16,973 nucleotides of DNA from positions 1 through 16,973 of the forward strand of contig CAIUDO010000223.1 in assembly GCA_903897935.1 (NCBI GenBank), given 5' to 3'. The notes beneath the pieces were generated by a model that saw only the letters and a list, made by a program, of their open reading frames with translations, was not told the DNA's origin and did not search any database. Below, in pieces: positions 3,638 through 5,960 of this stretch (its first letter is position 1; every line of letters starts with the position of its first letter). A program made the position numbers and the translations under genes. The stretch is from an uncultured Pseudomonadota bacterium (GTDB lineage: Bacteria > Myxococcota_A > UBA796 > GCA-2862545).

Positions 3638-4015
3638 ATGATGGTCCTCGCGCTGGTCGTGATCGGGTGCTTGCCCGCGACCCCCACCCCGCCGGGTGAC
3701 CCCCTGGGATGCGGGCCGACCCTCGCCTGCGGCGGCGGCGAGGTGTGTGTCCAGCAGACCTACGAGCCGTCGTGTGACGAGCGGCTCGACACCGGCGCCG
3801 ACTGCCCCGAGGGGACCACGCCGTCCCGGTGCGGCGGCGTCGGGTACCCGTGCTGCTGCGGCGACGCCCCCGAGCCGACGTGGTCGTGCGTGGCGCCGAT
3901 CGACTGCGACGGCGAGGTCACCTGCGCGTGCTTGCCGGACGCGTGCAGCGAGGGCGCGTGCGAGCCCACCCTCGATCCCGACGCGTTCGTGTGCGCCCCG
4001 CTGGCCAAGCCGTAG
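3638..4015 (+). CDS. Small (125 aa) cysteine-rich secreted protein, possibly a lipoprotein. It has 17 Cys and an N-terminal hydrophobic segment ending in VIGC
   Basis: ATG at 3638 is preceded by GGAGGAAGG at 3624-3632. High GC3. TAG stop at 4013-4015. The hydrophobic N-terminus MMVLALVVIGC is followed by Cys-rich mature sequence (CGPTLACGGGEVC...CCCGD...CDGEVTCAC...). The n-region has no K/R, so the signal-peptide call is tentative. Confidence 0.6.
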   Translation: MMVLALVVIGCLPATPTPPGDPLGCGPTLACGGGEVCVQQTYEPSCDERLDTGADCPEGTTPSRCGGVGYPCCCGDAPEPTWSCVAPIDCDGEVTCACLPDACSEGACEPTLDPDAFVCAPLAKP

Positions 4016-4060
4016 CGTCGTGCGCGCGGGTTCGGATACGATCCGATCAGGAGGACACCC

Positions 4061-4955
4061 ATGACCACGCGCACCGACGCGGTCTGGACCACCGCTGATC
4101 GCGCACGCTTCTTCATCATCCCAGTCGATAGCGACCTCCCGGCGGGCTCGCTCACGCTTGGGGCTGGGGTGCGTTCGGTCGCCGTCGATCCCGACGCCGC
4201 CGCAGCCTACGAGGTCGACGCCGAGGCCGCGCGCGCGCACGCGAACCACACGTTCCGCCGCGGCTGGGACACGCTGCGCGACCAGCTGCCCGGCGCCCGC
4301 TTGCCCGACCTGGACGGCCTCCTGGGCGCCGAGCCCGCTCAGGTCATCGCCGACGCCGGCGCCGCCCGCGACGCCGTGCGGCGCGCCGCCGAGCAGATCG
4401 CGTCGGCCGCCGGCCACCCCGACCCCGCGCGGGTCATCGACGAGCGCCTCGCCAGGTTGCGCGCCGACCTCGACGACGAAGACGGGCGGGTGGCGCGCGC
4501 CGCGAAGGGCGCCGCGCAGCGTCTGGAGCAGCCGACCCGCGCGCTGGCCGACCGCCTCGCGACGCCTGTTCAAGGCGAGCCGTTACCTCCACCCCGAGTA
4601 CGGCGACATCGGGGTGTTCGTGGTGTCTGCAGACTCCACGGGCTGGGGCCTCCCGGGCTACCGGGAGCGCTACGCGGTCGGGCGCATCCCCGGCGCGACC
4701 GCGAAGCCGCGCAGCGAGGAGCCGTGGGTGATGAAGTTCCTTGGCGATGAGAGCGGATGCCCTTTGTGCCGGTGCACAGGAATCGTCCGTGACGACTGGC
4801 AACCCGAGGCGGGTCAGGCGTGCCACAGGTGTGGCGGCCGCGGCTGGACGCCCGTACGCATCGACCTCTCGTGCCTGACTACCCCCCTCGAGGTCATCCG
4901 CTTCGAGGAGCCCGAGGACAAGCGCTACCTCAAGGCCCCCCTCCTCGACGCTTGA
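4061..4955 (+). CDS. Hypothetical protein with a C-terminal CxxC-(17)-CxxC zinc-ribbon-like motif. It carries an apparent +1 frameshift near 4560-4566 (N-terminal part in frame 2, C-terminal part in frame 0), so it is either a pseudogene or a sequencing error
   Basis: ATG at 4061 is preceded by AGGAGGA with a 6-nt spacer. High-GC3 coding in frame 2 runs to about 4560 (...RALADRLA), then codon quality collapses (gtt caa ... tta cct cca). High-GC3 coding resumes in frame 0 from about 4563 (RLFKASRYLHPEYGDIG...CPLCRC...CHRCGG...) and runs to the TGA at 4953-4955. Confidence 0.5.
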
Positions 4956-5120
4956 ACCGAACGCCCCATCACGCAATGTCGTTGGGGCTTCGCGGTAAAC
5001 GAGCAACGCCGAGGGTCCGCCGCGATCGAGACCGCCCAGCTCGACGTCACCGCCGCCAACGTCGACTTCCAGGCCCAGCAGGTCGCCGAGGTCCAGGCCG
5101 CCCGCGACGACATCTCCGCC

Positions 5121-5960
5121 TTGCAGCAAACCACCATCGACGCCCAACAGGCCGCCGTCGCCGACGCCACCGCCCAGATGGACACCGAGCGCGCCGCCTC
5201 TCTCGCACAAATCGACCCCCGCGTCGTCGCCGACCAAGCCAGCATCGAGGACCAGTCGTGGTGGGACAAGGCCGTCTCCGCTGTCTCCGACGCCCTCGAC
5301 ACCCTCGTCAACGCTGTGCTCGACCTGTGGGCGTCCATCCGCGACGCCGTCAGCGAGTTGCTCGACGCCGCCGTCGCCTTCGCCACCGAGCTGCTCCCGG
5401 CCTACTACGACTTCGTCCGCTTCTTGGTCCAGGAGCTGCTCGCAGACGTCTTCCCCGAGCTCGCCGAGCTGCTCCTCGCCGCGATCGACGCCATCGAGGA
5501 GGCCGCCCTCGCGACGCTGTCCGCGATCGCCGACGCCCTGAAGGCCGCCGTCCAGGCCATCGCCGACGCCCTGCTCGCCGCCTTGGACGCCTGGATCGCC
5601 CTCGTCGGGGCCGCCCTCACCGTCTATAAGACGCTGATCATGGCCGTGCTGACCGGCGACTGGGCCCTGCTCGCCGAGATGGCCCTGCGCGCCGTGCTGC
5701 TCGTCGCCGGCATCCCCTACGACGACTTCATGGCGACCATGGGCAAGGTCGTCGAGGTCTGGGACGAGGGGCTCGAGAACCCGGGCAACCTCGCCTCGAA
5801 CGCCGCAAAGGCGCTCGGCCTCGGCTTCGAGCAGTCCGGCGCCAACTTCCTCGACCCCTTCATCGCTGGCGCCGTCGAGTGGATCACGAAGATGCCGGCG
5901 ACGTCGAAGGACTCGGGCATCACGATGCCGGTGGCCCAGCGACGGGCGCCCGCCAGAAGC
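5121..5960 (+). CDS. Hypothetical Ala/Leu/Asp-rich alpha-helical protein with ill-defined boundaries, possibly a gene fragment. The only canonical start is TTG at 5121, but good coding potential begins at about 5013. There is no in-frame stop before the arg operator; the frame stays open to 6755
   Basis: GC3 is very high from about 5013 to about 5950 in frame 0. There is no ATG or GTG between the upstream TGA (4955) and 5121. Downstream of about 5960 the same frame turns into Arg/Pro-rich junk, runs through the AT-rich operator and overlaps argR and argG out of frame. Confidence 0.35.

Follow-up and report, generated by a model that had tools for sequence, protein, structure and literature searches.

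An apparent three-gene cassette beside an arg operon reads as one intact lipoprotein gene and the debris of a Tme-like effector locus

Polymorphic toxin loci of the Rhs and CdiA-CT/CdiI types carry cognate immunity genes, together with orphan or displaced toxin–immunity modules. Among the effectors of contractile injection systems, Tme of Streptomyces davawensis (BN159_7576) is presented by Nagakubo et al (2024; PMC11126660) as a tape-measure-related protein, and a further group, toxins linked to extracellular contractile injection systems (eCIS) and abbreviated EATs, is associated with the domain DUF4157 (eCIS_core, PF13699; Geller et al, 2021, PMC8213781; Danov et al, 2024, PMC11297309). The survival of the producers of nuclease effectors has been flagged as an open point in the eCIS literature (PMC8213781). 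Here we analyse a locus whose remnants point to an effector of this kind in DNA from an uncultured bacterium. The window, that is the whole stretch analysed, comprises the 16,973 nucleotides of contig CAIUDO010000223.1 (assembly GCA_903897935.1), and the interval of interest lies between a tRNA-like gene and an arg operon (Table 1), where a first-pass annotation had placed a cassette of three uncharacterised genes. The interval can be read with confidence as one living gene, here termed G1, and a rearrangement scar, the supposed cassette being mostly genomic debris. This confidence covers the relic and the gene models; the order of the ancestral locus and the roles suggested for two of its genes, G2a and G2b, are put more cautiously below.

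The GC content of the window is ~72%, which yields long open reading frames (ORFs) in all frames, and the real frames were therefore picked from a plot of GC at the third codon position (GC3). The plot gives a coding signal on the forward strand from 3638 to 5890, in a single frame from ~3600 to ~4500 and then in the +1 frame up to ~5890. The second of the three proposed genes opens at ATG 4061, its coding frame moves by +1 near 4559 and it closes at a stop at 4955 with CPLC-x17-CHRC. The CxxC-x17-CxxC ending that had been remarked on is thus present, but the interpretation of the ORF as one frameshifted gene does not hold. With the product reconstructed across the frame change as the query, the matches split into two non-overlapping families. 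The G2a family (P0002, 184 aa) matches the first frame only, ending at ...ALADRLDALGDALKGAAARARDKR, and the G2b family (P0003, P0004 and P0005, 199–206 aa) matches the second frame only, from ...RRLFKASRYLHPEYG on. Of the contigs fetched for comparison, here given L numbers, L004 is the closest relative at the DNA level on the left side, with 86.7% identity over window positions 1732–4559. This match stops exactly at 4559, and beyond that point L004 goes on with the end of G2a, a spacer of ~300 nt and an eCIS_core/DUF4157 gene. Because the matches fall into two families and the homology to L004 ends there, nucleotide 4559 is assigned as a deletion and fusion breakpoint. "Gene 2" is a deletion junction that fuses two unrelated genes out of frame, with microhomology of at most 1–2 nt. 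The G2a remnant has lost its last ~18 codons, including a conserved C-terminal motif, LGDALK.AAA..RD, that is kept even in the 32%-identical homologue next to the DUF4157-containing tme gene of L013. The G2b remnant is missing its first ~68 codons and retains the zinc-ribbon pattern CxxCxC...CxxCGGRGW; within it a 74-aa ORF from ATG 4731, with GAGGAG just 5' of it, can still be called and is called in contigs from the European Nucleotide Archive (ENA) too.

A clean +1 change of frame with coding signal on both sides is also what programmed +1 ribosomal frameshifting, or another form of recoding that yields a single G2a–G2b fusion protein, would give. This explanation is scarcely credible here. 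Each frame belongs to a different gene family; elsewhere each half is a complete gene by itself, and the window has truncated versions of both; in L004 a different gene comes after G2a, which ends at a stop of its own; and no slippery or stall motif was seen at CUC-GCG-ACG. Programmed frameshifting was rejected on the grounds that the truncated halves of two separate gene families meet at 4559.

The third stretch, G3, has the Ala/Leu/Asp-rich composition that had been described (23%, 13% and 9%, respectively), and it does lack both a start and a stop: no in-frame ATG, GTG or TTG precedes TTG 5121, with the coding signal beginning at ~4990, and no stop is reached until 6755, with the signal ending at ~5890. 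Rather than a gene it is an internal fragment, of ~293 aa, from a large, Tme-like contractile-injection-system effector, lacking the start codon, the DUF4157 domain, the linker and the nuclease end. A word-indexed homology search with G3 returned nothing, and its relatives were found through the neighbouring genes and through a metagenome scan with an alignment of the G3 family, which gave three further loci; the same type of scan with a G2b alignment found nothing. G3 aligns with the front part of the large protein encoded directly after G2b in L009 and L011, at 69% identity by tblastn and 82% over aligned columns. Two in-frame deletions, of 33 and 11 aa, are private to the window, being absent from L009, L010, L013 and L014; ~20 residues preceding RGSAAIETAQ have also been lost, and the fragment stops after ...AGAVEWIT at 5888.

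Searches of all the products (G1, G2a, G2b and G3) against Pfam, NCBIfam and PADLOC gave no informative match, with zero matches to the anti-phage defence models of PADLOC-DB, so the earlier statement that none belongs to a recognised family stands for these collections. PHROGs are the exception, as tail tape-measure families in that collection match the third stretch. The families matched by the G3-family region include 1272, 4200, 58 and 1535, and the E-values are 2e-5 to 5e-4 for the window fragment and reach 2e-16 for the full-length relatives (L014). The fragment also has the helical and transmembrane features of a tape-measure-like protein, with two hydrophobic 19-mer helices scoring above 1.6 on the Kyte–Doolittle scale. 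Sequence searches of the PDB with a profile of the tme body and with the toxin C-terminus returned nothing.

The full-length relatives indicate what has been lost. L013 has a single long ORF that combines the G3-like region with an N-terminal eCIS_core/DUF4157 domain (E 1e-28, with an HELMH motif) and a linker of ~400 aa rich in Ala, Pro and Glu; a G2a homologue lies upstream of this gene in divergent orientation. The homologue in L014 is at least 1,333 aa long, with a C-terminus that weakly matches Endonuclea_NS_2. On its 3' side there is one ORF of 198 aa and then genes for CIS_tube, Phage_GPD, Phage_base_V (E 7e-24) and Baseplate_J proteins, which together form a contractile injection system cluster. 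The protein of which G3 is an internal piece has at least ~1,200 aa without counting the DUF4157 domain and linker. A scan of the window products with PF13699 gave no match, while the domain is present in L013 and at the syntenic position in L004; it has been deleted from the window. Nor were any injection-system genes found when the window was scanned for them, the arg operon lying downstream instead. No nuclease end is present in the window copy, and in the full-length relatives it is seen as sub-threshold matches to PF13930 (E 4e-5 and 6e-5, and faint in L026).

Wherever G2b is full length, in four contexts (L009–L011, L005–L008, L012 and L026), it lies directly 3' of the same nuclease-like tail, ...SAHLIADRFRG...GPDKWLAR*, either overlapping the end of tme by 16 nt (L009–L011) or following it after a gap of 5–7 nt; the copy of G2b in L012 is degraded. 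What lies 3' of G2b varies: L009 and L026 have a 5'-truncated tme there, L005 a gene for a MopE-repeat protein, and L012 a sigma-54 activator gene in convergent orientation. The order in the window resembles that in L009 and L026. The relatives thus have a small gene abutting the toxin end, an end that is absent from the window. From this arrangement, G2b on balance would seem to be an immunity protein or inhibitor of the nuclease-like end. G2a is probably an accessory of tme, because its place next to the DUF4157 gene is found in L004 and again in the distant L013.

The tme bodies of L009 and L010 are ~100% identical to about residue 700 and unrelated beyond about residue 850, and L014 has a different C-terminus again, followed by an unrelated small ORF. 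L009, L010 and L011 fit a 4,379-nt register of tme plus G2b, with C-termini that are unrelated after ...AAVVGAKAD, which suggests tandem or polymorphic copies of the effector. Fragments of tme seem to be common around these genes. One mid-gene fragment lies in the spacer after G2b in L005 (1063–1224), and the tme copy of L015 (2389–2988) is frameshifted and has lost ~280 aa internally.

At the right-hand end of the scar, positions 5887–5935 repeat, as the reverse complement, the 49 nt that come next in the tme gene (94% identical to L009 3399–3447), and at the protein level the inverted match reaches ~5956. Between the G2b and G3 remnants, the unique spacer at 4956–5009 stands in place of 178 nt of L009 that comprise upstream tme coding sequence and an internal Met called as the start there. 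Two AT-rich near-palindromes, TTGCATAAATATGCGCA and AAGCATGCGCATGATGCA, resembling ARG-box operators, adjoin the right breakpoint at ~5979–6025, just 5' of argR.

A sister strain has a G1 that is 97% identical, found on 19 contigs drawn from many samples in JGI, Logan and NCBI; of these contigs, L016 (22.6 kb) was studied as the example. Its gene order is Band_7, tRNA, G1, a 264-aa "ORF", argR and argG, and it is 96.7% identical to window positions 1–4035 and 97.6% identical to 5360–13832, with window positions 4036–5359 replaced by 163 nt. This filler (L016 10399–10561) lies between G1 and what remains of G3. Gene callers join it to the relic, giving a 264-aa "protein" seen in many metagenomes; the filler's match to the post-DUF4157 stretch of L013 is not significant (E = 1). 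L016 shares the right-hand scar and has derived deletions of 7 nt and 1 nt in the remaining G3. Among the 19 contigs with this G1 variant, the right junction is carried by those that were read, L016 and L019–L023. As the junction is common to both strains, the 3' truncation predates the split between them, and both strains have later lost different further pieces.

The source is uncultured, and the tme bodies, being repeated, break assemblies, so that the junctions might be artefacts of a chimeric metagenome assembly joining reads from paralogous loci. The agreement between independent assemblies makes this highly improbable. Independent metagenome contigs in ENA encode an identical G1 protein, and one of them (L002) is 100% identical to window positions 3496–4965 and so has an identical left junction at 4559. 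A further ENA contig, for which gene calls but no DNA are available, has calls that match those of the window across the boundary between G2b and G3. The right junction recurs in several JGI and Logan contigs from different samples.

The most economical ancestor of these arrangements would have had the order G1, G2a, tmeA, G2b, 'tmeB, ... argR. In such a locus tmeA would have encoded an N-terminal DUF4157 domain, a long linker, a tape-measure-like body with membrane helices and a C-terminal His-Me-type nuclease-like domain, with G2b, most likely its immunity protein or inhibitor, directly after the nuclease end, and 'tmeB would have been a displaced, 5'-truncated second copy of tme. Partial counterparts can be seen in L004, which is 13% diverged and keeps an intact G2a and the DUF4157 gene, and in L026, from the same sample, in which a nuclease end is followed by G2b and then by a tme copy truncated on its 5' side, beginning within the linker. 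An illegitimate deletion of several kilobases, from about codon 166 of G2a to about codon 68 of G2b, would have removed all of tmeA and fused the stumps out of frame at 4559. A second lesion would have taken the start of 'tmeB, and in a third event 'tmeB would have been cut after ...AVEWIT, leaving the 49-nt inverted scrap just 5' of the argR control region.

Several observations weigh against this reading of the interval as debris of a Tme-like locus, or against parts of it. The nuclease assignment comes from Pfam matches below the gathering threshold (E ~5e-5) and from a motif read by eye. The likeness to BN159_7576 is one of architecture and position as described in PMC11126660 and not one of compared sequences. 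The ancestral order was pieced together from separate short contigs, and L004 and L026, from one sample, may come from different genomes. The AlphaFold2 (AF2) model of G2b has a predicted local distance difference test score (pLDDT) of only 33. In G3 the GC3 is still 0.95–1.0 and there is no stop or frameshift within 5010–5888, so either the relic is young or some constraint persists; the ratio of non-synonymous to synonymous rates (omega) of G3 against L016 is 0.34, a value from only 10 substitutions at which neutrality and constraint are not separable.

Orphan modules of Rhs and CDI loci act as silent recombination cassettes. The relic might in the same way be kept for a function, either with the 74-aa zinc-ribbon ORF (4731–4955) as an orphan immunity fragment or with the G2b–G3 remnant as a silent recombination cassette for full-length tme genes at other sites of the genome. 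The GAGGAG before ATG 4731, the calling of this ORF in independent contigs and the unbroken G3 frame with its very high GC3 would fit such a role, as would the fact that contigs L002 and ERZ1426837 break inside or beside G3, which suggests that there are other copies in the same community. We nevertheless regard retention for function as unlikely. In the sister strain nothing of the G2b fragment is left, the 5' half of G3 has been deleted too and the remainder is frameshifted; G2b in the window is without its conserved N-terminal 68 residues, and a product of the 74-aa ORF would be short of ~125; and what survives of G3 is the conserved body and not the variable toxin end. The relic in this window is ordinary genome decay, and 4061–5956 is not expected to yield a working toxin, immunity or accessory protein. 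The suspicion in the first-pass annotation that the region is partly decayed is borne out by the deletion junction, the truncated fragments and the inverted scrap. Of the alternatives that it offered, an eroding toxin/immunity remnant comes closest, as 4560–5956 derive from a Tme-like effector gene and from the small gene after its nuclease-like C-terminus.

G1, on the other hand, is intact. It encodes 125 residues with 17 cysteines, as first noted, and a lipobox of the form [LVI][ASTVI][GAS]C, VIGC, closes its signal peptide (MMVLALVVIG-C), with Cys11 as the predicted lipid-modified residue; the n-region has no positive charge, which is atypical for a lipoprotein signal. An exhaustive HMMER search with G1 found 52 representative relatives (E<=1e-3), nearly all of 72–213 aa, and a lipobox-like motif is present in 41 of 51 of the relatives. 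All but one weak, long match share a CCC motif. In an alignment of 15 members of this small, unnamed family 16 cysteines are invariant, and Pfam gave zero matches for these 15. The AF2 model of G1 has a pLDDT of 85, and a search of the predicted fold against the PDB found no match. The gene is intact in all three lineages (the window, L016 and L004), with omega values of 0.26 against L016 and 0.19 against L004, and is under purifying selection. We take it to be a resident, functional gene for a lipoprotein, disulfide-rich or metal-binding, that is unrelated to the rest of the interval. A run of eight A at ~3581–3588, 5' of G1 in this 72% GC genome, is identical in the independent contig L002.

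The idea of an accessory cassette beside a tRNA, made up of a secreted Cys-rich peptide and two partners, one a frameshifted zinc-ribbon protein and the other helical, drew on ORFs that are co-directional and tightly spaced and that have no Pfam match. It is now very hard to maintain. G1 persists intact in L016, where G2a and G2b are gone, and a 48%-identical G1 homologue sits in an unrelated gene context. Homologues of the parts thus occur separately, G1 in L016 and L025, G2a with the DUF4157-containing tme and G2b after nuclease ends, an outcome that the first-pass annotation had itself named as refuting the cassette, and "gene 2" is two genes and "gene 3" an internal fragment. A secreted Cys-rich peptide with partner proteins is without support, and while the sequence features that had been listed are accurate, the gene model built on them is not. 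Horizontal acquisition next to the tRNA fares no better. The interval is on the 5' side of the tRNA-like gene, where a tRNA-targeted island would be expected at the 3' end, a search of 3300–6200 for att-like or flanking direct repeats, insertion sequence ends and sigma-70 promoters found nothing meaningful, and no integrase domain was found in the scanned ORFs of the window. The order Band_7–tRNA–G1–G2a is syntenic in L004 (87% DNA identity), and the flank is syntenic in L016 also.

Table 1. Coordinates of the features of the interval and its borders (positions in the window).
Feature	Coordinates	Strand	Basis
Weak tRNA-like gene	3059..3133	-	ARAGORN; Rfam 37.9 bits
G1, intact 125-aa lipoprotein gene	3638..4015	+	GC3, sequence, HMMER relatives, omega
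G2a', first 166 of 184 codons	4061..4558	+	90% to intact P0002 in L004; runs out of frame to stop 4750
Left breakpoint	4559		Placed within ~2 nt; homology to G2a up to 4558 and to G2b from 4560
'G2b, last ~131 codons and stop of a ~200-aa zinc-ribbon gene	4560..4955	+	84-85% to P0003 and P0004
Unique spacer with GCCCCA...TGGGGC hairpin	4956..5009		No match among the fetched loci
G3, internal piece of a Tme-like effector's tape-measure-like body	5010..5888	+	82% to L009 protein; PHROG matches
Inverted tme scrap, right breakpoint	5887..5956	-	Reverse-complement match to tme gene
argR, right boundary of the relic	6064..6528	+	Pfam Arg_repressor domains; L016 gene calls

The tRNA-like gene is the only tRNA call, a 75-nt "Ser(tga)" without a long variable arm and with two mismatches in the acceptor stem. 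About 70 nt upstream on the same strand (~3205–3262) there is a second tRNA-like 3' half (CCGGTTCGATTCCGG...GGCACCA), which is called by neither ARAGORN nor Rfam. To the right of the relic, the arg operon runs argR-argG-orf362-argC-argD-argF-argB. The 362-aa gene between argG and argC (7720–8808, forward strand) has weak matches to P-loop families (MobB, 8.5e-5; DUF1611, 1.8e-4) and differs from the sister strain by eight synonymous and no non-synonymous changes. The neighbouring argC (8801–9865) is 94.9% identical to that of L016, with an omega of 0.30, compared with 96.0–99.5% for the adjacent arg genes, and may be a recombination patch. A scan of genome contigs anchored on ArgR found only a 41%-identical protein in a metagenome-assembled genome of the Bdellovibrionales, and hence no close reference genome. 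A myxobacterium-like lineage would fit the high GC, the MopE repeats and the Cys-rich lipoproteins. Further along, a 764-aa protein encoded on the reverse strand (14523–16817) contains the MopE/Cu-binding "putative metal-binding motif" 13 times (PF11617, E 1.7e-121) and shares 30% identity with the protein of 1,123 aa encoded after G2b in L005.

For the window itself these results remove a false lead, the interval being neither a novel three-gene module nor a recoding event. The relatives are of wider interest. Tentatively, Tme-like effectors may evolve like polymorphic toxins, swapping C-terminal toxin domains together with cognate immunity genes and leaving 5'-truncated orphans and debris; G2b would then be a new zinc-ribbon immunity family and G2a a new DUF4157 accessory, and G1, separately, a new 16-Cys lipoprotein fold. 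Such C-terminal swapping with orphan copies in injection-system effectors is a lead worth following, and so is the recurrence of the small gene G2a beside DUF4157 effector genes. The zinc-ribbon G2b is a candidate answer to how the producers of nuclease effectors survive, and the G1 family, with its invariant cysteines, confident model and lack of a PDB match, is a clean target for structural annotation.

In comparison with described proteins, G2b shares the CxxC...CxxCGGRG spacing of the DnaJ/Anti-TRAP zinc hairpin (PF15777), with weak matches to Anti-TRAP (E 2.5e-4 to 5e-3). These matches are, however, below the gathering score, and the remainder of the ~200-aa protein has no known relative. 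The G3 family shares with the tail length tape measure proteins of phages significant profile matches, Ala/Leu-rich helices and hydrophobic segments. The window, in contrast, has no phage genes, and the relatives have DUF4157 domains and nuclease-like ends, which are typical of injection-system effectors. As for EATs, the position deleted in the window is taken up in L004 and L013 by PF13699 proteins, with long linkers after DUF4157 as described for this group, although no DUF4157 sequence is left in the window. The architecture matches that of Tme as set out in PMC11126660: the full-length relatives of G3 share the DUF4157 domain, the long linker, the tape-measure-like helical and hydrophobic body and the C-terminal domain resembling DNA/RNA non-specific endonucleases, and the homologue in L014 likewise lies just upstream of tube-initiator, spike and baseplate genes, with the one 198-aa ORF between. 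The window differs in holding an internal fragment only, with no injection-system genes nearby, and the relatives differ in occurring as tandem full and 5'-truncated copies with swapped C-termini, an arrangement not known to be described for Tme in that paper. In this last respect they follow the pattern of polymorphic toxins such as Rhs and CdiA. The carrier here is a tape-measure-like injection-system effector and not an Rhs or CdiA protein, and both toxicity and immunity are putative, but the tme loci share with the polymorphic toxins a conserved body with an abrupt C-terminal switch, a small gene abutting the toxin end, 5'-truncated downstream copies (L009 and L026) and frequent fragments (L005 and L015).

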